Below, one piece after another: positions 3,740 through 21,077 of a DNA stretch of 64,000 nt; within the stretch, counting starts at the first letter, position 1; each line of letters starts with the position of its first letter. Source of the stretch: an uncultured Thermoanaerobaculia bacterium (lineage in GTDB: Bacteria; Acidobacteriota; Thermoanaerobaculia; Multivoradales; Multivoraceae); contig OX638294.1 of assembly GCA_951812325.1 (NCBI GenBank), forward strand, positions 1,138,527 through 1,202,526, given 5' to 3'. A program made the translations under genes and the position numbers. The notes under the pieces were generated by a model. It was not told the origin of the DNA, searched no databases, and was given only the letters and a program-made list of their open reading frames with translations.

Positions 3740-4825
3740 CTACTCTCCGGAATCGCCCGTACTGGCGGCCTTGGCCAGGGCGTCCTCCTCCAGAAGGCGG
3801 GCGCCGCGCATGATGTTGCCGAGGGCGTAGTTGCCCTCGTGACAGGCGTACTCGTAAACGAGGGCGTCGCTGCGAGGCCAGGCGTACTCACCGCTCCAAG
3901 GCGCCGTCCACACGTTCGGATCCTCGACGGTGAACTCGTATCGCAGGTGATCCGGACCCATCGGAGTGAACCGCTCGACCACATGCAGGTCGCGGGTCGC
4001 CGAACGCAGAGCCGGCCGGTCGGCGAAGTTCGTCGTGTCGATGACGAGAGTGTCGCCTTCCCACCAGCCGATCGAATCGCCCATCCACCGGCGCTCCGGC
4101 GCCGGGGCATGCTCGCCGCCGATGCGGACGACGCGCGCGTCGTGGACCATCTCGACCAGGATCATCACGTGGTCCTCCGTCTGCACGATCCGCTTCAGGT
4201 TGTTGTAGAGGGCCGGCAGCATCGGCGGCCCGCCGGTCGAGCTGAAGCCCAGCAGGCAGCGCTCCGCCAGCGGTCGCAGTTCCGGATCGTCGTAGGGGCC
4301 CGGCCCCTCCCGCTCGAGCCACCAGGCCTCGCCCGTGTTGGCGCGGAAGAAGCCCCTCCGGGCGGCGAAACGTTCCCGGACAGCCTCGGTCACCGGCGGA
4401 TGACGGCCATTCTTCGGGTCGACGATGATCGAGGTGCGGAACCTGCCGTCAACCTCGAAGACATCCGTCCCCCGCTCGATCCAGAAAGCGTTGTAGCCAC
4501 CGACGTTGCCGGCGGCGCCCGGCGAACCGTCGCCGCCCTCGGGGGGCGCTTCGCGGTCGGGATCGCTGACCTGACCCGCCTCCTGCAGGCGCAGACGCTC
4601 CTGCTCGGCGATCTTGTCGGCTTCCTCCCGCGACAGGTACAGATTGTCGCCAAACGCCTGCGGACGCGCCAGCGGCGTCAGGGTGCCCACGTTGTAGTAG
4701 CCGGAGATGTCGGGCCGGCCGGACGGGGTCCGGGCAAGCTCCTCGTCGCCGGCGGCCACGGCAGGCGCGGCGAGTCCGACGACGGCAAGAAGAACAACAG
4801 CAACCTTGAGTCCGGATTCGCGCAT
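3740..4825 (-). CDS. Secreted protein of unknown function (paralogue family A, member 1)
   Basis: Signal peptide MRESGLKVAVVLLAVVGLAAPAVAAG. Motifs GWWEGDTLVIDTTNF, LRYEFTVEDP and YEYACHEGNY are shared with the ORFs at 4902-5828 and 31754-32752. ATG at 4825 is preferred over the upstream TTG at 4870. Confidence 0.6.
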   Translation of the reverse strand: MRESGLKVAVVLLAVVGLAAPAVAAGDEELARTPSGRPDISGYYNVGTLTPLARPQAFGDNLYLSREEADKIAEQERLRLQEAGQVSDPDREAPPEGGDGSPGAAGNVGGYNAFWIERGTDVFEVDGRFRTSIIVDPKNGRHPPVTEAVRERFAARRGFFRANTGEAWWLEREGPGPYDDPELRPLAERCLLGFSSTGGPPMLPALYNNLKRIVQTEDHVMILVEMVHDARVVRIGGEHAPAPERRWMGDSIGWWEGDTLVIDTTNFADRPALRSATRDLHVVERFTPMGPDHLRYEFTVEDPNVWTAPWSGEYAWPRSDALVYEYACHEGNYALGNIMRGARLLEEDALAKAASTGDSGE

Positions 4826-5969: not shown

Positions 5970-7736
5970 TCAGGGCAGCGCGAAGACGAACAGCGTGTTG
6001 TTCGAGCTCGGACGCAGTTCCGCCGTCAGCCGGCGGAACGTCGACGTCGAGCCGCCCTCGGCGCCGGTGCCGACGGCCACGTACTGCCTCCCGTCCACCG
6101 CGTAGCTGATCGGGAAGCCGGTCACCGAGGAGCCGATGTTGATCTCCCACAGCACCTCGCCCGTCTCCTGGTCCAGCGCCCAGAAGCGGCCGCCGACGTC
6201 GCCGCCGAAGACCAGGCCGCCGCCGGTCGCGGCGAGCGACATCGTCGCGGGCAACCGCTCGTGGAGCCAGAGCGTCTCACCGGTCTCGGCGGAGATCGCG
6301 TAGACCGTGCCGAGCAGTTCCTTCCCCGGCGCGAACTGCGTGTCGTTTACCAGGGCGTAGTGCATCGCGCCGCGGCCGACGCGCGTCGTCATCCGGGAGC
6401 AGAGGTTGCGGAGCGGGTAGTACATCGCGTTGGTCAGCGGACTGTAGGCGCCGGCCTCCCAGTCCTTGCCGCCGAGGAGCGAGGGGCAGATCAGGCGTTC
6501 CTGTTCCAGCTCGGTGAACACGACTTCCGGGTTCAGGGCGACGGCGCCGGTCTCGCCGTCGATCCGTTCGATCACGTTCTGCGGCACCGTCGGCCGCGCC
6601 CACAGGAACTCGCCGGTCTCGCGGTCGAGCGTGTAGACCAGGCCGGTCTTGCCCGGCACACCGGTCACGACCTTGCGCATCTCGCCCGCTTCGATCCGCG
6701 GATTCCGCCAGGCGACGGCCTCGGCGTCCGGCGCGACCGCCGTGTCGACGAGCAACCGCTCGAAGGGATGATCCAGATCCCAGTGGTCGTTCAGGTGCTG
6801 GTAGTACCAGCGCACGCTGCCGGACTCGATCTCCAGCGCCAGCGTCGAGTTGTGGTACAGGTGGGTCTTCTCGTTGCCGCCGATCAGGAACTTCGGCGCC
6901 GGCGAAGTGACCGACGTGCCGACGATGAGGAGTTGAAGATCCGGGTCGTAGCTCGGCGCCATCCAGGAACCGACGTGGTGGCGGTTCTCGAACGGCACGT
7001 CGCCCCAAGTCTCGTTTCCGGGCTCACCCGGTCCCGGAATCAGCGGACGGCGCCAGAGCTCCTCGCCCGTCGCCGCGTCGTGGGCGGCGATGAAACAGGC
7101 CTCGGGGCCCCGGTGCGGCCGGCAGCTGCGCCCCGAGATCACGCGGCCGGCGGCAATGATCGGCCCCGTCGAGTGCCTCGCCGGGTCCTCCTCGTAGTCG
7201 ACGATCCGGGTCTCCCAGACCAGTTCGCCGGTCACCGCGTCGAGCGCGTAGGCGTAGCCGTCGTTCGCCGTGTCGATGATCAGTCCCCCGTAGATCGCGA
7301 GACTGCGGTTGACCGTCTCCAGACCGCCCACCCAGGTCGCGATGTCGTCGGGGATCGGCCGCTTGTACTCCCACAGGAGATCGCCCGCAGCAGCGTCGAT
7401 CGCCTGGGTCACGCTGCTCGGATTCGGGTAGTACATGACGCCGTCGTAGACGAGCGGCGTCCCCTGCTGGCTCCCCTCCTCGAGACCGCGCGACCAAGCC
7501 AGGGTGAGGTCCGCCACGTTCTCCCGGTCGATCTGGTCGAGCGGGCTGTAGGCCCAGCCGTTCTGGGTACGACGCCAGTGGAGCCAGTCCGCGGGATCGG
7601 GCTCCTCCAGCATCGCGTCGGTGACGGGAACGAAGGAGTCGTCGGACTGGGCGCCGGCAGGCAGGCCGATGGCCAGCAGAAGCGCGGGGACCACGACGAT
7701 CCGCAGCGTCAACCGAAGGACGGGCTCTCGACTCAT
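5970..7736 (-). CDS. PQQ-dependent dehydrogenase (quinoprotein alcohol/sugar dehydrogenase family), periplasmic
   Basis: 588 aa with a signal peptide and beta-propeller repeat pattern (PLVYDGVMYY, W-repeat motifs). The family is recognisable from the translation. Confidence 0.8.
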   Translation of the reverse strand: MSREPVLRLTLRIVVVPALLLAIGLPAGAQSDDSFVPVTDAMLEEPDPADWLHWRRTQNGWAYSPLDQIDRENVADLTLAWSRGLEEGSQQGTPLVYDGVMYYPNPSSVTQAIDAAAGDLLWEYKRPIPDDIATWVGGLETVNRSLAIYGGLIIDTANDGYAYALDAVTGELVWETRIVDYEEDPARHSTGPIIAAGRVISGRSCRPHRGPEACFIAAHDAATGEELWRRPLIPGPGEPGNETWGDVPFENRHHVGSWMAPSYDPDLQLLIVGTSVTSPAPKFLIGGNEKTHLYHNSTLALEIESGSVRWYYQHLNDHWDLDHPFERLLVDTAVAPDAEAVAWRNPRIEAGEMRKVVTGVPGKTGLVYTLDRETGEFLWARPTVPQNVIERIDGETGAVALNPEVVFTELEQERLICPSLLGGKDWEAGAYSPLTNAMYYPLRNLCSRMTTRVGRGAMHYALVNDTQFAPGKELLGTVYAISAETGETLWLHERLPATMSLAATGGGLVFGGDVGGRFWALDQETGEVLWEINIGSSVTGFPISYAVDGRQYVAVGTGAEGGSTSTFRRLTAELRPSSNNTLFVFALP

Positions 7737-7873: not shown

Positions 7874-9124
7874 ATGCCTGCGACCGACAACGGCCGGATC
7901 GTGATCACCGGGCTCGGCGCCGTAACGCCGGTTGGCAATGACGTGACAACCTTCTGGCGGCGGATGAAGGCCGGGGACTCGGGCGCCGGCCCGATCACCG
8001 CGTTCGACACGGAGGCGTTCAACGTCAAGATCGCCTGCGAGGTACGCGACTTCGACCCAACCGAGTGGCTGGCCGGCAAGGCGGCGCGCAGGATCGCGCG
8101 CTCGACCCACTTCGCGGTGGCCTCGGCCAAGCAGGCGGTTGCCCACGCGGGGCTGGCAATCGACCCGGCCGTGGCGCATCGGCACGGCGTCGCTTTCAAC
8201 ACCGGGGGCGGGGGCGCGTCGAGCATGGAGAGCGGCACGCGCCGGCTCGTCGCGCGTGGTCCGCGGAAGGCGAACCCGTTTCTCGTCACCGACGTGATGC
8301 CGAACGCCGTCTCCTGCCTGATCTCGATCGAACTCGGCGTGACCGGGCCGACGACGACCTCCACCATGGCCTGCGCAAGCGGCAACTATGCCCTGCTCGA
8401 GGCCTACCGGCTGCTGCGCTCGGGCGAAGTCGACGCAGTGATCGCCGGCGGCACGGAGGCGGCCATCACGCCGCTGATCGTCGCGACCTTTTCGCGGCTC
8501 CAGGCTCTCTCCACCCGCAACGACGACCCGCCGGCAGCCAGCCGGCCGTTCGACGCCGACCGCGACGGCTTCGTCTTCGGCGAAGGCGCCGCCGCGTTCG
8601 TCGTCGAGACCGAGCGCCACGCGGAGAAGCGGGGCGCCCACGTCTACGCCGAGGTGCGCGGGGGCGCCGTGACCGCCGACGCGCATCACCTGACCGCTCC
8701 CCGCCCCGACGGCGCCGGCGCGGCGGCCGCGATGACGCGAGCCCTCGAATCGAGCAACACGGACCCCGGCGAGGTCGACGCGGTGTTCGCGCACGGTACG
8801 GCCACACCGCTCGGCGACGTCGCCGAAACCCTGGCGATCAAGGCGGCGATCGGCGACCGGGCCAAAGATGTCGCCGTGGCCGCCACGAAGTCCCAGGTCG
8901 GCCACATGCTGGGCGCCGCCGGCGCGGTATCGGCACTCGCCGCGGTCAAGACGATCGAGGAGGGCACGATCTGCCCGACGATCAACCTCGAGCAGCCCGA
9001 TCCGCAGTGCGACCTGGACTACGTGCCGAACCGGGCCCGTGCCCACCCCACCGGCGTCGCGCTCGTCAACGCCTTCGGCTTCGGCGGCCAGAACGTGGTC
9101 GTCGTCCTCGCCGACGCCAACTAA
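7874..9124 (+). CDS. fabF: Beta-ketoacyl-ACP synthase II
   Basis: 416 aa. Starts with the typical RIVITGLGAVTPVGN, has the active-site Cys in MACASGNYA, the HGTAT motif with catalytic His, and a GFGGQN C-terminus. Confidence 0.9.
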   Translation: MPATDNGRIVITGLGAVTPVGNDVTTFWRRMKAGDSGAGPITAFDTEAFNVKIACEVRDFDPTEWLAGKAARRIARSTHFAVASAKQAVAHAGLAIDPAVAHRHGVAFNTGGGGASSMESGTRRLVARGPRKANPFLVTDVMPNAVSCLISIELGVTGPTTTSTMACASGNYALLEAYRLLRSGEVDAVIAGGTEAAITPLIVATFSRLQALSTRNDDPPAASRPFDADRDGFVFGEGAAAFVVETERHAEKRGAHVYAEVRGGAVTADAHHLTAPRPDGAGAAAAMTRALESSNTDPGEVDAVFAHGTATPLGDVAETLAIKAAIGDRAKDVAVAATKSQVGHMLGAAGAVSALAAVKTIEEGTICPTINLEQPDPQCDLDYVPNRARAHPTGVALVNAFGFGGQNVVVVLADAN

Positions 9125-9128
9125 GCCC

Positions 9129-9305
9129 GCCTCGTGCCCAAACCGGGACTCCCCGGCGTCCTCGCCAGCGCGAAACCAGCCTCGTGCCCGGGCGCGCCGT
9201 CGTCCGCGCCAGCGCGAAACCAGCCTCGTGCCCGGGCGCGCCGCCTCCCTCGCCGGCGCCAACTAGCCAGCCTCGTGCCCAAACCGGGCGCCCCGGCGTG
9301 CCATC
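9129..9305. repeat. Four imperfect tandem repeats (about 44-50 bp) beginning GCCTCGTGCCC, in the fabF/SRPBCC convergent intergenic region
   Basis: Units start near 9129, 9179, 9223 and 9270, each GCCTCGTGCCC(A/G)..GCGCGAAACCA-like. Seen directly in the sequence. Confidence 0.7.
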
Positions 9306-9306
9306 C

Positions 9307-9390
9307 GTGCGCCCGCTGACGGGCGCACGGACTGGTTCGCGTGTGGCGCGGAACGCGCCACACGGGTTCTCGCCGGCATCCGGATGCCGC
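9307..9390. terminator. Cluster of three GC-rich hairpins between convergent genes (likely bidirectional terminators)
   Basis: GTGCGCCCG-CTGA-CGGGCGCAC; CGTGTGGCGCG-GAA-CGCGCCACACG (11-bp perfect stem); palindrome GGCATCCGGATGCC. Confidence 0.5.
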
Positions 9391-9409
9391 CCGACGCCAG
9401 AGCCCGAAC

Positions 9410-10081
9410 TCACTCGCGCGACAGCACTCGCTCCCGTACCGACGCCAGCACGCTCCGCAGCGCGCGGGGCGCCGCGTAGTCCACGATCCAGGCCGGGAGT
9501 CGGCCGCCAGGGTCGGTCAGCAGCCGGTAGACGACGACCGTCCGTTCGGGATTCAGCGGAATCAGCGTCCACGAGCCCTTGCTTTCCTGCACGTTCCCCG
9601 AACCCTCGACGTACGTCCAACGGGCCTGCCAGCCGGCGCCGGCGCCGGTCTCGACGGCCCCGGTATCCACGCGAACCGTGTAGCGCCGGTCGTCGACGGG
9701 AAACGGCATGTCCAGGATCTGCCGGTTCAGGTAGACGCCCGGCGAGACCGGCTCGACGTCGGACTCGAGAACCCGGGGCATGAACTCGTCGAAGTCCGCC
9801 GCCGCGTCGACCACGTCGCGGACCGCCGCCAGCGGCGCCTCGATCACGCCGATGCCGCAGCCCTCGGAAACGCGGCGACCCGCATCGCGTCTCGAAACGC
9901 GCCACTTCCCGACTGCCGGCAAGTCCCACGTCGAAGGACTGCCGCCGAGACGTTTCCGGGGCGCTGATTCGAAATCGAACTCGCACGGATCCATCCCCTG
10001 CGCTTGTGGGACCACCAGCACGAGACAGACCACGAGCGCGCCGGCCGCTCTCTCCATGACGTCGGACTCTACTGCTGCCAT
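9410..10081 (-). CDS. SRPBCC (START/polyketide-cyclase-like) lipid-binding domain protein
   Basis: 223 aa. It has a hydrophobic N-terminus and the helix-grip fold signature of the SRPBCC superfamily. Confidence 0.5.
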   Translation of the reverse strand: MAAVESDVMERAAGALVVCLVLVVPQAQGMDPCEFDFESAPRKRLGGSPSTWDLPAVGKWRVSRRDAGRRVSEGCGIGVIEAPLAAVRDVVDAAADFDEFMPRVLESDVEPVSPGVYLNRQILDMPFPVDDRRYTVRVDTGAVETGAGAGWQARWTYVEGSGNVQESKGSWTLIPLNPERTVVVYRLLTDPGGRLPAWIVDYAAPRALRSVLASVRERVLSRE

Positions 10082-10172
10082 CCCGGATTTGCGTCCCGTT
10101 CGTCAGCTCCTCCTGAACCCGCTGCACGCCGTCATACGAAGATCCGATCGATCGCGGTACCGTTGTACGGCC

Positions 10173-10379
10173 ATGACACAAGTGACTCTTTCGCCCAAGT
10201 ATCAGGTCGTCATTCCACTTGAGATCCGCACCGCTCTGCGACTCAAGCCAGGCCAGAAGATCCAGGCCATTCGTGTCGGCCGCTGCATCCAGCTGATCCC
10301 GGTCAAGCCGATGCGGGAGTACCAAGGCTTTCTACCCGGTATCGACACCGAAGTCGAGCGCGAACCGGACCGCCTGTGA
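10173..10379 (+). CDS. AbrB/MazE/SpoVT-type antitoxin-like DNA-binding protein (VapB-like)
   Basis: MTQVTLSPKYQVVIPLEIRTALRLKPGQKIQ is a classic swapped-hairpin AbrB-type N-terminus. 68 aa. Its stop overlaps a downstream GTG (GTGA). Confidence 0.6.
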   Translation: MTQVTLSPKYQVVIPLEIRTALRLKPGQKIQAIRVGRCIQLIPVKPMREYQGFLPGIDTEVEREPDRL

Positions 10380-10405
10380 ACGTCGTCGACTCGTCGGCCA
10401 GGTAG
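10376..10405 (+). pseudogene. Nine-codon remnant of a PIN-domain (VapC-like) toxin gene
   Basis: GTG overlaps the antitoxin stop and encodes VNVVDSSAR before a stop. The V-x-V-V-D-S-S-A start matches the conserved VapC N-terminus (MxxLDTSxxI). The rest of the gene is absent, and the convergent transporter gene ends at 10419. Confidence 0.35.
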
Positions 10406-10418
10406 CCCGCGACCGGTT

Positions 10419-11774
10419 TCACTCCGCCCTTCGCTCCGCCCGCAACCGCCCGAAGTACTCGAATGCGGCCGCCTTGACCTTCGGCGCCAGCAGCAGCGTC
10501 GCGATCAGGTTCGGCACCGCCATCAGGGCCAGGGCGGTGTCGATCAGGTTGATCACCATGCCGGCGCTCCACCAGGCGCCGACGAAGATGCCGACGAGGT
10601 AGAACCAGATGTAGAGCCCGGCGTGCCTGGCGCCGAAGAGGTAGGCGAAGCAGCGCTTGCCGTAGTACGAGTAGCTCACCATCGTCGAGATGGCGAAGAG
10701 CATCACGATCAGGACCAGCAGCGCGCGGCCCGGCGCGCCGAGCGCGCTCTGCACGGAGTCTGCGGTCAGCGACACGCCGCTGATCTCGCCGACGGTCTCC
10801 AGGCCGCTCGAGAGGATGACGAAGGCGGTGAGAGAGCAGACGACGATCGTGTCGATGAAGGGACCCAGCATCGCCACCAGGCCCTCGCGCACGGGTTCGT
10901 TCGTCTTCGCCGCGCCATGCGCGATCGGCGCGGTGCCCAACCCGGCCTCGTTCGAGAACGCCGCGCGGCGGACGCCGATCATCAACGCCTGCTGGAATCC
11001 GATCCCCATCGCGCCTCCGGCCGCGGCGGTGCCGGTGAACGCTTCGCGGAAGATGCGGCTGAACACCTCGACGGCCACGTCCGAGCGCACGAACAGGACG
11101 CAGAGCGCCATGCCCAGGTACAGCAGGCACATCGCCGGCACGAAACGCGCCGTCACCGCGCCGATCCGTTCCACGCCGCCGAACGCGACCAGCGCCACGA
11201 GGGCCACGCAGCCCACGCCGGCCAGAATCGGCTCGAGTCCGAACTGGGCCTCAAGCAGTTCCGCGACCTGGTTGCTCTGGAACATCGGCAGGCAGCCGAA
11301 CAGGCCGAAGGTACAGAACATGATCGCCAGCGGCCGGAACCTCTTTCCGAGGCCGAGCTCGATCGTGTACATCGGACCGCCCTGGAGGGCGCCCCGCTCG
11401 TCGCGGCCGCGGTAGATCTGGGACAGCGTGCAGGAACAGAACTTGGTCGCCATGCCGACCAGCGCGGCGACCCACATCCAGAACACGGCCCCGGCGCCGC
11501 CCTGGGTCACCGCGATCGCCACGCCGCCGATGTTGCCGACGCCGATGGTCGCCGCCAGCGCCGTCGACAGCGCCTGGAAATGGCTGATGTGACCCGGATC
11601 GTCCGGCGAGTCGTACTTCCCCAGCGTGACCGCGGCGGCGTGCCCCATGTGGAGCAGGGGCCGCAATCGCAGATAGACGCAGAAGAAGGCGCCCGAGCCG
11701 ATCAGCAGGATGACCAGGGGCATGCCCCAGGCGTACCCGACCGCCGCTTCCAGGAAGCTGTCTAGAGCCTGCAA
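10419..11774 (-). CDS. Alanine/glycine:cation symporter (AGCS family)
   Basis: 451 aa with multiple TM helices and AGCS family signatures (GVGNIGGVAIA..GGAGAVFWMW, SNEAGLGTAPIAHGAAKT). Confidence 0.85.
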   Translation of the reverse strand: MQALDSFLEAAVGYAWGMPLVILLIGSGAFFCVYLRLRPLLHMGHAAAVTLGKYDSPDDPGHISHFQALSTALAATIGVGNIGGVAIAVTQGGAGAVFWMWVAALVGMATKFCSCTLSQIYRGRDERGALQGGPMYTIELGLGKRFRPLAIMFCTFGLFGCLPMFQSNQVAELLEAQFGLEPILAGVGCVALVALVAFGGVERIGAVTARFVPAMCLLYLGMALCVLFVRSDVAVEVFSRIFREAFTGTAAAGGAMGIGFQQALMIGVRRAAFSNEAGLGTAPIAHGAAKTNEPVREGLVAMLGPFIDTIVVCSLTAFVILSSGLETVGEISGVSLTADSVQSALGAPGRALLVLIVMLFAISTMVSYSYYGKRCFAYLFGARHAGLYIWFYLVGIFVGAWWSAGMVINLIDTALALMAVPNLIATLLLAPKVKAAAFEYFGRLRAERRAE

Positions 11775-11819
11775 ACGATCACGTTCCGTTCACCGCCGGC
11801 CGCCCGGGTGGCGGCGGTC

Positions 11820-13358
11820 TCACTGCTCCACGACTTCCAGACTCACCGGATCGCGCACCGGCAGCATGGTAACCCTGCCTCCGAGCTTCGCCGCAACGTC
11901 CGCCATCGTCGCGCGACCGTCGCTGTCACCCGGCTCGATCGCATCCCAATCGCCGACGACCAGCATGACGAGCCGGTCGGGCGAGAGGTAGCGCTCCGCC
12001 ACCCGCTGCACGTCGGCCGGCGTCACCGCCTCGACGCTCTCCCGATACGTCCCCCAGTAGCTGTGCGGCCGGCCCAGAAACTCGTCCTGCGCGAATATCT
12101 CGGCCACGGCCAGGGCCGAGTCGAACTCGTTCGGGAAGGTCTCGATCGCGGCCGCCTTGACCGTCCGGAGCTCGTCGTCCGAAACCGGCTCGGCCCGGAT
12201 GCGGTCGATCTCCTCGAGCGCGATCTTCGCCGCCAGAGCCACCGTTTCGCTCTTCGACTGGAAGGTGACGCTGAGATTGTCCGGCCAGTAGTTGCCGATA
12301 CCGAAGCGGGAGTAAGCGCCGTAGGCCAAACCCTCGTCCGAGCGGATCCTCTTCATCAACCGGGTCGTGAAGCCGCCGTTGCCGAGGACACCGTCCATCA
12401 TCGCCAGAGCGAAGTGATCCGGGTCACTCCAGCCCTGGCGCTGCAACGTCCGGTGGCCGATCTGCACCCGGCCCTGCGGGACGTCCTGCCGGGCAACGTA
12501 GACCCCCGCAGCGGGCTCATGCCCCGCGGCCTGCGGCGGCCACGGCGCCTGTCGCCGCCCTTCGCCGCCGAAACGGTCGAGCAGCGCCGACAGCCGGGCG
12601 GCGAGTTGGTCGGCGTCGAAGTCGCCGGCCGCCGCGATGACCATGTGCGCCGGATGGACATGGCTGTTGTGGAACTCAGCGAGGTCCGGCTGCCCGATCG
12701 CCGAGAGCGAGGCCGCCGTGACGAACCGGGACTCGACGTGATCCCGCCCGTAGAGCAGCCACTGACCCTCCCTGCCCGCGACATCGATCGGATCGTCATT
12801 GCGCTGCTTCAGTTCCTCCAGCTCGTTCTGCTTCGCCAGGTCGAGTCGGTCGGCATCGAAGCGAGGTTCGCTGAGCATCGAGAAGAACAGGTCGAGACAC
12901 TCGTCGAGCACCGTGGTCAGGCAGTTCATCGACATCCGGGCGCTCGTGCTCCCGATGGAGGACGAGAAGTCCCCGGCTATCGCTTCCACCGCCTCGTCGA
13001 AGGCCTTCGCTTCGAGTTCGCCGGCGCCGCCGGTCCGCATCAGGGCGCCCGTGAGGCCGGCCAGCCCCGCCTGCTCCACCGGCTCCAGGTAGGCGCCGAT
13101 CCGCAGACGCACCGTGACGTCGACCAGGGGCAGCGAGCGGTCCTCCACCAGGTAGGCCGGAACGCCCCCCGCGAGCTCGCGCCGGTAGGAGTCGGCGCCG
13201 GGCAGCTCGAAGTCGAGCGGACCGTAGGTCAATCCGGTCGGGTGATCAACGATCCCGGCGCCGTTCTGGGCACTGCCGGGGGCGGTCAGCCCGATGAGGA
13301 GGGCCAGGACGAGGAGAGCAGGAAGGGAGAGAGTACCCGGTTGCCGGCGGCCGATCAT
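11820..13358 (-). CDS. M16 family peptidase, non-catalytic-type subunit (lacks HxxEH)
   Basis: 512 aa with a signal peptide and the M16 fold pattern (ICT_IPR insulinase-like) but no inverzincin motif. Its start overlaps the upstream M16 gene by 4 nt (ATGA). Confidence 0.75.
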   Translation of the reverse strand: MIGRRQPGTLSLPALLVLALLIGLTAPGSAQNGAGIVDHPTGLTYGPLDFELPGADSYRRELAGGVPAYLVEDRSLPLVDVTVRLRIGAYLEPVEQAGLAGLTGALMRTGGAGELEAKAFDEAVEAIAGDFSSSIGSTSARMSMNCLTTVLDECLDLFFSMLSEPRFDADRLDLAKQNELEELKQRNDDPIDVAGREGQWLLYGRDHVESRFVTAASLSAIGQPDLAEFHNSHVHPAHMVIAAAGDFDADQLAARLSALLDRFGGEGRRQAPWPPQAAGHEPAAGVYVARQDVPQGRVQIGHRTLQRQGWSDPDHFALAMMDGVLGNGGFTTRLMKRIRSDEGLAYGAYSRFGIGNYWPDNLSVTFQSKSETVALAAKIALEEIDRIRAEPVSDDELRTVKAAAIETFPNEFDSALAVAEIFAQDEFLGRPHSYWGTYRESVEAVTPADVQRVAERYLSPDRLVMLVVGDWDAIEPGDSDGRATMADVAAKLGGRVTMLPVRDPVSLEVVEQ

Positions 13359-15181
13359 TGCGCTTCTCCTTCGTCTTCCTGCAGTTCAGCGAGCCGTGCC
13401 TCTACCACACCCCGCATCCAGTCGAGCGCAGGCCGCATGTCTTCGGGCACCTGAGCCGCCTGGGCATCGATCTGCTGCAGAACCGCCTCCAGCTGGACCG
13501 GGTCCCCGAGCTCCCGGATCGCCGCCGCATCGGACATGAGAGCCGTCCGCATCTCCGGCGGCAGGGCCTGCAGCTCGGCGGGAATGTCCCGGGCCTCGGT
13601 GCCCGCCTTGCGGTAGTACAGGCTGACCAGCCGCTTCGACGGCTCGAAGTACTTCGCCGCCACCCGCTGCACGTCCTCGGCAGTGACCTGATTCGTACGC
13701 TCCGCGACCGTGTTCAGGTAGCGCCAGTCGCCCATCGAGTCCATGATCGCCAACTGGATCATCAGGAAGAACGGCTCCCGAAGTTGACGGTAGGTGTCGG
13801 CCGACACGCGGTTCCTGACCTTGGCCAACTCGTCTTCCGGAACCGGCTCGGCGATCAGGTTCGCGACGATCCCGTCCCAGGCGGCCAGCAGCTGCTCGGG
13901 TGTGGCGGCGCCCTTCGTCTCGGCGCGCAGATTGAAGACGCCCGCGTACTTCCTGGGTTCGTGGAACGCGCTGGCGCTGGACGCGATCTCGGCGCCCTCG
14001 ACCATCTCCTCGTACAGACGGCCGGTGCGGCCGTTGAGCACACCCGCGATCACGTCGAACGCATACCCGTCGGCGTGGCCGAACGGCGCCGCGTGGTAGC
14101 GAATCTGAAGTTGCGGCTGGCAGTCGCACTCCGCGGTGAGCCGCTTCTCGGCCAGCTGCTCGGCCTCAAGCGTCACGACATCCGGAACCTCCCGGGCACT
14201 CCGCTCCAATCGACCGAAGTAGCGTTCCGCGAGTTCCCTGACCTCGGCCGGATCGAAGTTGCCGACCAGAATCCCGGTCAGGTTGTTCGGCGCGTAGTAG
14301 GCGGCGAAGAACTCGTCCGCCTGCGCCTTGCTGATCACCTCCAGGTCGGACGCCCAGCCGCCGACCGGCCAATGGTACGGGTGTGACTGCCAGAACATGG
14401 CGTCCGCCTGCTCGTCGTAGCGGCCCGTGGGCGTCGACTCGATGCGCAGGCGCCTCTCCTCATGGACCACGTCCCGCTCGGCGTAGAACTCCCGGAACAC
14501 CGGATTCAGCAGCCGGTCCGACTCGAGCCAGAACCAGAGTTCCAGCCGGTTCGCCGGCAGCTGGTTGATGTAGACCGTGAAGTCGTTGCTGGTGAAGGCG
14601 TTGATGCTCGTGCCGCCGCCATCCGCGTAGACCTTGTCCAGTTCATCCTTGACCATGAGTTCCCGCTGCTCCTCCACGAGCTCCTGGAACTCCGCGCGCA
14701 GGGCGTTCAGGGTGTCGGTGCGGTGGGCCGGGTCGTAGGGGTCGTCGATTTCGCCGAGCCTGAAGCGGCGGCGCTGCTCCCGCAATTCGGCGCGGATCTT
14801 CTCCTGAACCGCCTCCTGCTCCGCAATGATCTCGAGATCCCGCTCGATGTCCTTCGTGCCGATCGTGTGCGTCCCCTTGAACATCATGTGCTCGAAGAAG
14901 TGGGCGAGGCCGGTGATTCCCGGCCGCTCGTTCGCCGAGCCCACGCGGGCCGCCCATGCCGCCGCGACCGTGGTCAGCTCCGGGCGCCTCACGAGCAGGA
15001 AGCGCATCCCGTTGTCGAGCTCGAACTCCTCGACCGGCACCGCCGCCGCCGTCGCGTCCTGCGCCGCGGCGGCGCTGTGCGGGACGAGCGGCAGGACGAG
15101 CGCGAGCGCCGCCGCCGCCGCGACGCGGGCAAACCCGGATCCGGCTCCGCTGTTGGACAAGCTGTTGGACAATCTGCTCAA
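13355..15181 (-). CDS. M16 family zinc peptidase (pitrilysin-like), catalytic subunit
   Basis: 608 aa. Signal peptide. HFFEHMMFKGT carries the inverted zinc-binding HxxEH motif. Confidence 0.85.
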   Translation of the reverse strand: MSRLSNSLSNSGAGSGFARVAAAAALALVLPLVPHSAAAAQDATAAAVPVEEFELDNGMRFLLVRRPELTTVAAAWAARVGSANERPGITGLAHFFEHMMFKGTHTIGTKDIERDLEIIAEQEAVQEKIRAELREQRRRFRLGEIDDPYDPAHRTDTLNALRAEFQELVEEQRELMVKDELDKVYADGGGTSINAFTSNDFTVYINQLPANRLELWFWLESDRLLNPVFREFYAERDVVHEERRLRIESTPTGRYDEQADAMFWQSHPYHWPVGGWASDLEVISKAQADEFFAAYYAPNNLTGILVGNFDPAEVRELAERYFGRLERSAREVPDVVTLEAEQLAEKRLTAECDCQPQLQIRYHAAPFGHADGYAFDVIAGVLNGRTGRLYEEMVEGAEIASSASAFHEPRKYAGVFNLRAETKGAATPEQLLAAWDGIVANLIAEPVPEDELAKVRNRVSADTYRQLREPFFLMIQLAIMDSMGDWRYLNTVAERTNQVTAEDVQRVAAKYFEPSKRLVSLYYRKAGTEARDIPAELQALPPEMRTALMSDAAAIRELGDPVQLEAVLQQIDAQAAQVPEDMRPALDWMRGVVEARLAELQEDEGEAQ

Positions 15182-15554
15182 GAACGATCCCTCCTGACTG
15201 TGGTTCCCAGGCGCCGCCGCGCCAGGGCGTCGGCGCGGCGCCGGGACACTCTACCGTTTCGACCCGCACAAGAGCAACGCCCAAGACCGTTCCGAAGTCG
15301 GACTTCGACGACCGAATTCAGGCCACCGCTCCGGAATCCACTCCAGAATCGGCGACTCCGTGCCGGTACCGTTCTCAAGGTCCGGGAATAACGACCTCCT
15401 GCCCGCTCCTGCCCGCCCTCGGCGCAATGCACTGGACGCAGGAACCGCCCTGACGGCAACGGCACGGAGGATCGACATCCGCCCCGCGCCCGCCGCAGCC
15501 GCGCAGGCCGACGCGCTTCTTCAGACGGCAGCGACACGGCAGCGTCACGGAAGG

Positions 15555-17740: not shown

Positions 17741-17771
17741 TCAGGGCGGCCCTTCGGGGCCGCCCTTTTTC
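17741..17771 (+). terminator. Rho-independent terminator of groESL
   Basis: GGGCGGCCC-TTCG-GGGCCGCCC followed by TTTTT. Confidence 0.7.
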
Positions 17772-17951
17772 CTATGCCGGGAGCGTTTGCCATCCAGGAG
17801 CCTGCTCCGCACGGGTCGCCAGCGCGCAGCCGGCAAGCGCCGGGGCCGACCACGGCAGCCGGGCCGCTCTGCCCCCGCTCCGGTGTTCTGACGCTGGTAT
17901 CGTCCCCTCGATCCACTCGACCGTCCGTCGAGAAGAGAGGCAATCCGCCCC

Positions 17952-19025
17952 ATGTCATCGGCTCCACACGATCAACCCGTCTGGCTCTGGTGGAGCGGCG
18001 GCAAGGACTCGGCGTGGGCCCTGCACACGCTGCGGAACGATCCGGAGTGGGAAGTGCGCGGGCTCGTGACACATGTCAACCGGCACAACGGTCGGGTGGC
18101 CATGCATGGAGTGCATCGACACATGATCGAGCGACAGGCGGCCGCGGTCGGCCTGCCGCTCCATGTGATCGAGTTCGACTGGGCGGCGTCCCGGAACGAT
18201 CACGACGCCGCCATCGAGGAGGGCCTCCTGCGCTGGTGCCGGGGCGGCCGGAAGTTCGTCGCCTTCAGCGAGCTCCTTCCCGGCCGTGCCATGCGACGCC
18301 GTTCGGCGCTTGTCGGCCGCATCGGACTCCACGCCGTGTTCCCGCTGCTCGGCCGCGACCCGGCCGACCACGCCGCGGAGATCCTGGAGGCAGGTTTGAA
18401 GGCCAGGGTGTGTTCCGTCGAATCGGACCGCCTGCCTGCCTGCCACGCGGGTTGCCGCTTCGACGAGGACTTCGTGGGGTCGCTGCCGCGAGGCGTCGAC
18501 CCCTGCGGCGAGGACGGCGAGTTCCACACGTTCGTCGAATGGGCGCCCGGGTGGTCGTCGCGGATTCCGACCGACGCTGGCGCCAGAATCGAGTGCTACG
18601 GCTTCGGATTCGCGGAGATCGTGGAGTCCTCTCGGGCGCCGCGGAAGGAAGAAGACCGCCGCCCCGGGACCGGCAACGACCCCTTCGGCTACTACGCCCG
18701 GCTGAGGAGGGTCCGCGAGCACGTCGATCAACATCTCGACGAGCCTCTCGACCTGCACGCTCTCGCGCCCGTCGCGGCGATGAGTGCCGGGGGGTTCGGC
18801 AGGTTCTTCCGCAAGGCCACCGGCCAGTCGTTCCACGATTGGCTCAACGAGCGCCGCCTCGAGCGGGCCGCCGTCCTCATCGGCGACCACAACGAACCGA
18901 TCGGGCGAGTGGCGGAGACCGTCGGTTTCGGTTCTGAACGAACGTTCCGGAGGTTGTTCCAGGGGAGATTCGGCTGTACTCCCTCGCGGTTCCGATCTCA
19001 GGCACGGGATACAGAAGCGGGATAG
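17952..19025 (+). CDS. Fusion protein: N-terminal PP-loop ATP pyrophosphatase (Dph6/MJ0570/DUF71-like, SGGKDS) and C-terminal AraC-family HTH domain
   Basis: N-terminal part: WLWWSGGKDSAWAL (the SGGxDS PP-loop) and a GEFHTFV motif, as in diphthine-ammonia ligase-like N-type ATP pyrophosphatases. C-terminal part, about 100 aa: LHALAPVAAMSAGGFGRFFRKATGQSFHDWLNERRLERAAVLI..ETVGFGSERTFRRLFQGRFGCTPSRFR, a canonical AraC HTH. It is a single uninterrupted 357-aa ORF. Confidence 0.65.
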   Translation: MSSAPHDQPVWLWWSGGKDSAWALHTLRNDPEWEVRGLVTHVNRHNGRVAMHGVHRHMIERQAAAVGLPLHVIEFDWAASRNDHDAAIEEGLLRWCRGGRKFVAFSELLPGRAMRRRSALVGRIGLHAVFPLLGRDPADHAAEILEAGLKARVCSVESDRLPACHAGCRFDEDFVGSLPRGVDPCGEDGEFHTFVEWAPGWSSRIPTDAGARIECYGFGFAEIVESSRAPRKEEDRRPGTGNDPFGYYARLRRVREHVDQHLDEPLDLHALAPVAAMSAGGFGRFFRKATGQSFHDWLNERRLERAAVLIGDHNEPIGRVAETVGFGSERTFRRLFQGRFGCTPSRFRSQARDTEAG

Positions 19026-19110: not shown

Positions 19111-21077
19111 CCGAAGTTCTTGAGCTTCTGCGGCCCCGTGATGGTCGATAGTCGTTGCCAGGCTTGGGTTTGCGGGTTGTTGGCCGGTCGTTCGGGGGCG
19201 CATATCGTAGCCATGTAAAAATGAGAGAAGAGGTAGACAGTCACGACGATCTAGAGTACAATGCGAAGCCATGTACATCGAGAGCATACGCAACCGGAAC
19301 TCGCCGCCTGCCGTCCTGCTTCGAGAGTCCTACCGCGAGCACGGCAAGGTCAAGAAGCGCACACTCGCCAACCTCTCCAAGTGGCCGGACCATCTCGTCG
19401 AGGGGCTGAGGACCCTCCTCAGGGGCGGCGTCGCACTGCCGTCTCTCGATGCCGCCTTCGACATCGTCCGCGCCAGACCGCATGGACACGTTGCCGCCAC
19501 GCTCGGCGCCGCCAGACGGGTCGGTATCGAGCCCTTGCTCGACCGGAGGCGGTCGAGACAACGCAGCCTCGCGACCGCGATGATCGCCGCGCGCATCCTC
19601 GATCCCCGGTCCAAACTCGCGACCGCGCGAGGACTCGCGTCCGAAACGATCACTTCGACCCTCGGTGAAGAACTCGGTGTCGAGGAGGCGTCGGCCAGCG
19701 AGCTCTACGAGGCGATGGACTGGCTGCTCAAGCGGCAACCGCGAATCGAGCGGCGCCTGGCCAAGCGCCACCTCGAGGAAGGAGCCCTGGTCCTCTGCGA
19801 CCTGACCTCGGTCTACTTCGAGGGCTCGTCCTGCGAGCTTGCCGTGCACGGGTACTCCAGAGACCGCAAACGGGGCAAGGTGCAGATCACCTTCGGCCTG
19901 CTCTGCAACCAGGACGGCTGCCCCGTGGGGGTCGAAGTCTTCTCGGGCAATACCGCGGACCCCTCGACAGTGGCCGCGCAGGTGCACAAGCTCAAGGAAC
20001 GCTTCTCGCTGGACCGGGTGGTCATGGTCGGCGACCGCGGCATGATCACCGATGCGCGCATCAGGGAGGACCTCGACCCCTCCGGACTCACGTGGATCAG
20101 CGCCTTGCGGGCGCCGGCGATCCGCTCCCTGGCCGAACAGGGCCACCTGCAGCTGTCTCTCTTCGACGAGAGAGGCCTCGCCGAGATCAGCGCTCCGGAG
20201 CTCTTCCCCTCAGAGCGGCTGATCGCGTGCAGGAACCCCCTGCTGGCCGACGAACGCGCCCGCAAGCGCCAGGAACTGCTCTCCTCCACCGAGGTCCAGC
20301 TCGAAGCCATCGTCAAGGCCACACGGCGCCAGAAGAACCCCTTGCGCGGCAAGGTCAAGATCGCCGCACGCGCCACGCGCGCCCTCGACCGCTTCAAGGT
20401 CGCAAAGCACTTCGAAACCGAGATCGAGGACGACAGCTTCAGCTATCGCCGCAATCAGGCACGCATCGACGAGGAAGCCGCACTCGACGGCTTCTACATC
20501 ATCCGCACCAACGTCCCCGAGGACCAACTGACCGCGGCCGATGCCGTGCGCTCCTACAAGAGCCTCAGCCGCGTCGAACGCGCCTTCAGGAGCCTGAAGA
20601 GCGTCGACCTCAAGGTGCGGCCCATCTACCATCGACTCGACGACCGGGTACGCGCCCATGTCTTCCTGTGCATGCTCGCCTACTACGTCGAGTGGCACAT
20701 GAGGCGCGCACTCGCACCCCTGCTCTTCGACGACGAAGACCACGACCACAACACCCGATCACCCGTCCTGCCCGCCCGCAGATCGGCCACCGCCATGGCC
20801 AAGGTCAACTCAAGGCGAACCACCCACGGATTCCCCGTACACAGCTTCCAGACACTCCTCGCCGACCTCGCCACGCTCACACGCAACCGGGTCCGAATCC
20901 AGCAAGCCGGCGACTCCACTGCCGATCTGCTGGCCACGCCAACACCTCTTCAGAACCAGGCCCTCAAACTCCTGGGCGTGAAACCCTGAGGACACGTACC
21001 CAGTAGGCTGCAACCCCAAATCGACGAAAAACCCCACCACTACAGGGGATTCCTCGATTCCGCGCCGAGAACTTCGG
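19111..21077 (+). mobile_element. IS1634-family (IS4 superfamily) insertion sequence, about 1.96 kb, with imperfect terminal inverted repeats and a target-site duplication
   Basis: Left end CCGAAGTTCTTGAGC and right end GCCGAGAACTTCGG (reverse complement CCGAAGTTCTCGGC) are flanked by a duplicated CCTAAG / GCCTAAGCC (6-9 bp; the exact boundary is ambiguous). The uninterrupted target GGCGGCCTAAGCCGGAATCAGGTCT is present in the paralogous locus at about 26310-26336. Confidence 0.8.
19271..20989 (+). CDS. IS1634-family DDE transposase
   Basis: 572 aa. MYIESIRNRNSPPAVLLRESYREHGKVKKRTLANLSKWPDHLVEGLR is the hallmark N-terminus of IS1634/IS1549-type transposases. The DDE region is downstream. Confidence 0.9.
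   Translation: MYIESIRNRNSPPAVLLRESYREHGKVKKRTLANLSKWPDHLVEGLRTLLRGGVALPSLDAAFDIVRARPHGHVAATLGAARRVGIEPLLDRRRSRQRSLATAMIAARILDPRSKLATARGLASETITSTLGEELGVEEASASELYEAMDWLLKRQPRIERRLAKRHLEEGALVLCDLTSVYFEGSSCELAVHGYSRDRKRGKVQITFGLLCNQDGCPVGVEVFSGNTADPSTVAAQVHKLKERFSLDRVVMVGDRGMITDARIREDLDPSGLTWISALRAPAIRSLAEQGHLQLSLFDERGLAEISAPELFPSERLIACRNPLLADERARKRQELLSSTEVQLEAIVKATRRQKNPLRGKVKIAARATRALDRFKVAKHFETEIEDDSFSYRRNQARIDEEAALDGFYIIRTNVPEDQLTAADAVRSYKSLSRVERAFRSLKSVDLKVRPIYHRLDDRVRAHVFLCMLAYYVEWHMRRALAPLLFDDEDHDHNTRSPVLPARRSATAMAKVNSRRTTHGFPVHSFQTLLADLATLTRNRVRIQQAGDSTADLLATPTPLQNQALKLLGVKP

Follow-up and report, generated by a model that had tools for sequence, protein, structure and literature searches.

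How did an antitoxin-like gene come to be followed by a reading frame of only nine codons that starts like a toxin gene, and why is the antitoxin gene still there? These questions are raised by positions 10173-10405 of the window, the 64,000-nucleotide stretch of DNA from an uncultured Thermoanaerobaculia bacterium that we analysed (coordinates given without a locus name refer to it). A preliminary description had read the site as a decayed type II toxin–antitoxin (TA) module in which the antitoxin has been kept. Synteny, the anatomy of the deletion and full-length vapC genes in relatives support this reading, and no result speaks against decay: the locus is very probably a dead vapBC module, whose toxin was lost by an in-frame deletion and whose vapB is left as a remnant. 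The vapB open reading frame (ORF) is intact, and 'kept' is true of its present state.

An intact AbrB-type antitoxin gene

The orphan vapB gene (10173-10379, plus strand) starts with an ATG at 10173, comprises 68 codons encoding MTQVTLSPKYQVVIPLEIRTALRLKPGQKIQAIRVGRCIQLIPVKPMREYQGFLPGIDTEVEREPDRL and ends with a TGA at 10377-10379. Its product passes the curated cut-offs of both family models of the AbrB/MazE/SpoVT superfamily, with 28.3 bits against PF04014 (MazE_antitoxin; cut-off 24.7) and 32.9 bits against TIGR01439 (AbrB; cut-off 28.3). We found 550 homologues (E ≤ 1e-3), nearly all of exactly 68 aa, and those that carry a name are AbrB, MazE or SpoVT proteins. A single-sequence phmmer search of VapB against the PDB gave no meaningful match, while a profile built from 41 homologues matched the solved AbrB-family proteins 2L66 and 5ITJ (E = 2e-4).

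The AbrB/MazE/SpoVT fold is a swapped-hairpin, or looped-hinge-helix, fold of β-β-α-β-β topology that forms an obligate dimer. An AF2 monomer model of VapB (pLDDT 68.8) contains a helix at residues 16-21 and strands at residues 30-35 and 38-43, which form a hairpin (30-43). The top Foldseek match of this model in the PDB is AbrB-N 1YFB (TM 0.52/0.64), with an E-value of 0.04 or weaker. Other fold matches are Sso7c4, SpoVT, MazE and the VapB chains of the Shigella, Caulobacter and F-plasmid VapBC (E 0.04-2). The weakness of these E-values reflects the model, which represents one 68-residue subunit of an expected dimer at a pLDDT of 69. Judged by its sequence, the 68-aa protein is an AbrB/MazE-type antitoxin (VapB), and the two family models together with the profile search confirm the identity first proposed for it.

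The nine-codon frame joins the start of vapC to its end

The stub ORF (10376-10405) opens with a GTG (10376-10378), encodes VNVVDSSAR in nine codons and closes with a TAG (10403-10405). Direct reading of the sequence bears out the reported overlap of this GTG with the stop of the 68-aa gene. The 22-mer GTGAACGTCGTCGACTCGTCGG (10376-10397) is found without mismatch where vapC starts in 17 fetched loci; it has no second match in the window at up to three mismatches, and none in 100 shuffles. The suggested alignment to the 5′ end of vapC genes holds for 10376-10398 (plus strand), a segment that is the same as full-length vapC starts and covers codons 1-7 (VNVVDSS) and the first base or bases of codon 8. 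The stub was thus correctly recognized as the VapC N-terminus, although the family motif is VVDSS(A/G)W and not the (V/L)DTS context that had been cited.

The preliminary description had further supposed that only this N-terminus is left. Most of the toxin is indeed missing, but the last codon and the native stop are also present. Alignment to ...TTCCCCAGGTAG, with which vapC of L004 ends, and to the equivalents in L002, L001 and L080 identifies the 3′ part of the stub (10399-10405, plus strand) as the end of a Pro codon, the final codon (Arg123) and the native TAG; the closing 7-8 bases (CAGGTAG) belong to the original vapC 3′ end with its stop. The stub therefore combines codons 1-7 of vapC with a hybrid codon, the final codon and the original stop. 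Because its 3′ end and stop codon are vapC's own, it arose by an internal in-frame deletion, and we rejected the alternative of an N-terminal fragment closed by a new stop, since CAGGTAG is the native end of the gene.

Relative to the 372-nt vapC of L002, the deletion removes 342 nt (114 codons) in frame. At its junction, which lies at 10397-10399, the left side (TCGTCGG(C)/GTGG...) and the right side (...TTCC(C)/CAGGTAG) share ~1 nt (C) of microhomology. On this alignment, the stub is a vapC remnant, an in-frame fusion of the toxin start to its stop. Among the acidic PIN residues, D5, E41, D91 and the C-terminal D-x-DF, it keeps D5 alone, the first catalytic Asp and one of four catalytic positions. 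Of the features that mark a functional VapBC module, the antitoxin-first order with overlapping genes is present (GTGA, 10376-10379, as in at least 20 relatives); an adjacent PIN toxin with its conserved acidic residues is absent, nine codons being all that stands in its place.

The next gene is agcS (10419-11774, minus strand), a Na+/alanine symporter gene (PF01235, E = 7e-125; TIGR00835, 439.6 bits) whose stop codon occupies 10419-10421. It converges on the stub just past the end of the latter, as originally noted, but at 13 nt (10406-10418) rather than 14 bp. The spacer between the vapC and agcS stops has the same length in intact loci, including L002, where vapC ends at 4575 and agcS begins at 4589. 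The reverse strand over vapB and the stub holds only mechanical ORFs, typical of DNA of ~68% G+C, and an Rfam scan of 9000-10600 at E ≤ 1 matched no family.

Relatives carry intact vapBC at the same site

We collected loci from assemblies and GTDB species representatives, with record titles naming Candidatus Multivorans, Thermoanaerobaculia and Acidobacteriota MAGs. The gene order of the window is found in 21 distinct loci: a START/polyketide-cyclase-like gene (minus strand), vapB, vapC where it is present, and agcS (minus strand). Full-length vapC, encoding 123-142 aa and sharing the GTGA overlap, is found in 18 of the 21; the other three, including the window, are decayed. The search for complete vapBC in related genomes that had been proposed for this locus thus returned a PIN-domain vapC at exactly the same site with the same overlap. 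With an intact vapB in the TA context of its relatives and a disrupted vapC, the locus in the window has the make-up of a degraded TA locus with an orphan antitoxin.

The vapC product of the relatives is a PIN-domain protein (PF01850, 61.8 bits). Among solved structures, the VapC chain 7by2_B comes closest to L002 VapC (E = 1e-5 over residues 41-118), and E41, D91 and the C-terminal DF motif align between L002 VapC and 7BY2. We considered L080, for which the gene caller gives a 78-aa PIN protein, as a further decayed allele and rejected it, as translation gives an intact 123-aa vapC. L004, L012 and L013 carry a 57-nt insertion right after the GTGA overlap (for example, L004 4225-4281), with which VapC is annotated at 142 aa; the codon at the overlapping, putative vapC start is CTG in L013.

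The family extends well beyond this site. Homologous copies with 56-66% identity occur in at least 10 phyla, some MAGs contain two copies (L014 and L022; L028 and L029), and Multivorans genomes also hold non-syntenic copies (L010, L018-L021 and L025). No related vapC was found elsewhere in the 64-kb window (tblastn, best E = 0.23).

Other decayed alleles

The second decayed allele, L001/L079, comes from the same species as the window, with flanks that are 97.5-99.6% identical and a VapB that is 100% identical. Its vapC has lost 222 nt, also in frame but over a different stretch, and 49 aa of the product remain. The L001 deletion falls within the one in the window, and microhomology at the L001 junction is not cleanly resolvable in the alignment. 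The two deletions are distinct events, which could be nested or independent; exchange with an intact donor by homologous recombination could not convert the L001 allele into the window allele. If the deletions are independent, both would be in frame by chance in ~1/9 of cases, and we do not treat this as significant.

The third allele, L024 (Candidatus Multivoraceae), has its vapC broken after codon 8 (VNVIDSSV) by ~630 bp of DNA of lower G+C content (L024 3230-3860), which contains a gene for a 154-aa GFA-family protein (glutathione-dependent formaldehyde-activating; PF04828, 77.7 bits). The 3′ vapC remnant of L024 is also internally deleted. In all three toxin-loss alleles, the window, L001/L079 and L024, vapB is intact.

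A divergent block begins at the deletion junction

Alignment of the window to L079 by BLASTN gave 97.5-99.6% identity on both sides and 85.1-85.4% over 10402-15264. The divergent block (10399-15264; ~4.9 kb, ~85% identical to L079, where its counterpart is 10350-15396) comprises agcS, its first gene, and two M16 peptidase genes. Identity steps from 99.1% to 85.4% at 10398/10402. The upstream flank, covering KAS, START and vapB, has 9 mismatches in 1030 nt, and identity returns to 98-99% past 15544. The left end of the block lies somewhere in 10399-10445, at the vapC deletion junction to within less than 50 nt, and on the right the block ends between genes, upstream of groES (15265-15543).

Between L079 and the sister species L006, identity is 94% in the block and 95% in the KAS gene. 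The block of the window has 84.6% identity to L006 and ~90% to its best match among the fetched loci (L002). Because the L079 block, unlike that of the window, matches L006 at a KAS-like identity, we infer that the L079 block is the native version and that the window strain carries an import from a diverged Multivorans lineage. No donor of the block was found among the fetched loci, and the junction 27-mer had 0 matches in JGI metagenome contigs. The wider region is a mosaic among species; L081, for example, is 95.6% identical to the window in KAS and 80.7% in vapB.

Since the deletion junction and the left boundary of this tract fall at the same place, the deletion was most probably made by, or carried in with, inter-lineage recombination, a link that draws on the coincidence of position. 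The import may have finished with an illegitimate join inside vapC. Alternatively, the donor may already have had the nine-codon allele, in which case the crossover would have used the ~35-nt invariant sequence spanning the vapB 3′ and vapC 5′ ends.

The window and L079 also differ outside this block. The gene for a PQQ-dependent dehydrogenase at 5970-7736 is replaced in L079 (6562-7670) by DUF6978 and DUF1828 genes, with only ~150 nt of similarity to the PQQ gene remaining (80% identity). The KAS/START spacer, which is ~200 bases longer in the window than in L079, contains a 44-bp tandem repeat (9153-9280; 2.8 copies, 86% matches). Downstream of groEL, ~17770-18910 and ~19114-21076 have no L079 counterpart and lie between segments that are 97.5-99.6% identical; as aligned, they are strain-specific insertions or deletions.

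A conserved block upstream of vapB

A 40-nt block at 10133-10172 (plus strand), a putative promoter/operator, keeps both its place and its sequence upstream of vapB across ~24 close loci, both syntenic and non-syntenic, and is intact in the window. It consists of a cATACGA box (10133-10139), five variable bases (N5), the 10-bp palindrome CGATCGATCG (10145-10154; core ATCGAT at 10147-10152), the palindrome CGGTACCG (10155-10162), TT and GTACGG (10165-10170), all on the plus strand. The short palindromes were read by eye from an alignment of the upstream regions. In other phyla, too, ATCGAT boxes stand upstream of the homologues, often paired around a recognizable TTGACA/TATAAT promoter and beside the Shine–Dalgarno (SD) sequence; they are likely to be the operator. 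Scans of 9950-10500 for a sigma-70 consensus, terminators and inverted repeats found nothing. The sole difference between the window and L001 upstream of vapB is an A-to-G change inside the cATACGA box (L001 3964, corresponding to window 10136).

The Multivorans copies show no SD-like sequence before the vapB ATG (...GTACGGCC-ATG; window 10155-10172), and in other phyla a GGAGG precedes the start of the homologues by 5-8 nt. Translation of vapB may therefore begin on a leaderless transcript or at a non-SD start. Operator binding is known for AbrB-type VapB, for example, that of Shigella and Caulobacter, and the toxin is established as a co-repressor in VapBC and other type II systems. With its upstream block in place, VapB of the window is probably expressed and autorepressing, without a toxin to control.

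Substitutions and constraint in vapB

Between the window and relatives with intact toxin, the pairwise dN/dS of vapB is 0.10-0.16, with a median of 0.19 among intact pairs; the values mostly reflect the history of the gene before toxin loss. The only comparison that postdates the loss, between the window and L001, shows 2 synonymous and 0 non-synonymous differences, which weakly favours constraint and is too few for a selection test.

Two substitutions fall at nearly invariant sites of VapB: E40Q (10290-10292), where E is present in 106 of 120 homologue clusters, and R51Q (10323-10325), where R is present in 101 of 120. Together, they could indicate relaxed constraint or a changed function. 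E40Q is also present in L024, which lost its toxin independently, but it occurs too in L084, where the downstream ORF is open over at least 106 aa, which weakens it as a marker of toxin loss. We rejected the segment RVGRCIQL of the window, in place of RLGETIEL, as a sign of decay, as RVGRCIEL is normal in the toxin-intact L005-L010; E40Q and R51Q are the only unusual changes.

Probable toxin-first decay and the fate of vapB

The ancestral operon encodes a 68-aa AbrB-type antitoxin and autorepressor followed by a 123-aa PIN-domain RNase toxin, with the GTG of the toxin overlapping the antitoxin stop; it still stands at the START/vapB/vapC/agcS site in most Candidatus Multivorans relatives. In the window lineage, a single 342-nt in-frame deletion with essentially no microhomology joined vapC codon 7/8 to codon 122/123. 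The resulting nine-codon ORF keeps the native start and stop, D5 alone and none of the PIN fold. VapB most likely continues to be made and to bind its own operator, with no toxin to neutralize or to act as co-repressor, and its self-repression is probably weaker in the absence of the latter.

Deletion of the toxin gene with the antitoxin left in place is a common way for TA modules to die. Since a cell that lost the antitoxin first would be left with a free toxin, viable decay is expected to begin with the toxin and to pass through an orphan antitoxin. We therefore regard vapB in the window as most likely a recent, effectively neutral remnant.

Whether vapB is instead held by selection is the main point on which other explanations differ. 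An orphan VapB could serve in anti-addiction, cross-neutralizing VapC toxins of the same family that are encoded elsewhere or on mobile elements, without the cost of a toxin of its own. The family is highly mobile and often multicopy, as its spread across phyla, the MAGs with two copies and the non-syntenic Multivorans copies attest; the putative promoter/operator block has been retained; and anti-addiction is an established concept for chromosomal ccdA and has been proposed for orphan antitoxins (PMC7354431, PMC7192599). The window itself, however, offers no related vapC to neutralize, and R51Q alters a nearly invariant Arg of the presumed toxin-binding tail, which argues against maintained toxin binding. 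The survival of vapB in every decayed allele and the lack of non-synonymous change between the toxin-less conspecific strains are in line with selection, but an antitoxin is expected to outlast its toxin in each case without any selection, because its prior loss is lethal, and the statistical power is negligible. On balance, we consider this explanation unlikely. A broader version would have recurrent toxin loss, seen as 3 independent alleles among 21 loci with two of them within one species, be selectively favoured, the E40Q/R51Q VapB being a toxin-free immunity factor against the highly mobile VapC family of the surrounding community or a rewired regulator, and the invariant sequence across the vapB 3′ and vapC 5′ ends being a homology anchor and recombination breakpoint; taken as a whole, it is improbable.

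Domestication of VapB as a transcription factor for host genes, such as the divergent START/polyketide-cyclase-like gene, appears very improbable. AbrB-fold proteins are general transition-state regulators, the operator-like palindromes sit in the intergenic region shared with the START gene, whose start is ~90-115 nt upstream of vapB, this arrangement is conserved across the genus and E40Q is common to two toxin-less lineages. The palindromes, however, travel with vapB into non-syntenic and cross-phylum copies and are therefore probably the module's own operator, and E40Q is also found alongside the apparently intact toxin of L084. That VNVVDSSAR is a coincidental match in a spacer, or that the deletion is an assembly artefact, is scarcely credible. 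Nothing counts for coincidence, which is refuted by the 22 nt that agree exactly with the start of vapC in 17 loci, together with the native 3′ end and the preserved spacer; a conspecific strain from an independent assembly carries a different deletion in the same gene, and an in-frame deletion of 342 nt is atypical of sequencing error.

The reading of vapB as a remnant of toxin-first decay has a practical consequence: in annotations, the locus is properly called an orphan AbrB/VapB-type antitoxin with a vapC pseudogene remnant rather than a working TA system. It offers an example of TA decay resolved to the base, in which the toxin went first while its start and stop codons and the distance to the next gene stayed as they were. 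The position of the junction at the edge of a recombinant tract is a small hint that conserved TA genes can serve as breakpoints between diverged genomes.

Comparison with known toxin–antitoxin systems

The fold matches of the VapB model include Shigella flexneri/sonnei VapBC, or MvpAT (3TND/6SD6), E. coli F-plasmid VapBC (9H6A) and Caulobacter crescentus VapBC1 (5L6L). Like these AbrB-type VapBC systems, the module has an antitoxin of ~68 aa, in which a predicted DNA-binding domain of the AbrB/SpoVT swapped-hairpin type at the N-terminus precedes a C-terminal tail, a vapB that in relatives overlaps a PIN-domain vapC, and palindromes upstream. Unlike them, the toxin of the window is cut to nine codons, and the similarity of its VapB to solved VapB proteins is too low for phmmer. 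The likeness to the Klebsiella VapC (7BY2/7BY3, 'Ribonuclease VapC') concerns the full toxin of the relatives only, as the window keeps D5 alone. The chromosomal ccdAB of Erwinia chrysanthemi/Dickeya is comparable in that a chromosomal antitoxin may neutralize a homologous incoming toxin; it differs in belonging to the CcdA/CcdB family, in retaining its toxin and in that neutralization has been shown experimentally.

A literature search on 'Candidatus Multivorans' found no paper. Orphan antitoxins from degraded TA loci are already well known, and the locus will not surprise a TA specialist: 2253 orphan antitoxins have been described in the Klebsiella pneumoniae complex, orphans that stem from degraded TA pairs and share their genetic context being common (PMC7192599), and the orphan VapB of M. 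tuberculosis has been reviewed (PMC7354431). Anti-addiction and a new regulatory role are the standard hypotheses for such antitoxins and have seldom been tested (PMC7192599, PMC7354431). The same hypotheses, and that of a mere remnant, apply to the VapB described here. Unlike the orphans of K. pneumoniae and M. tuberculosis, it belongs to an uncultured Candidatus Multivorans host, and its decay step is resolved to the base and tied in position to the boundary of a recombination tract.
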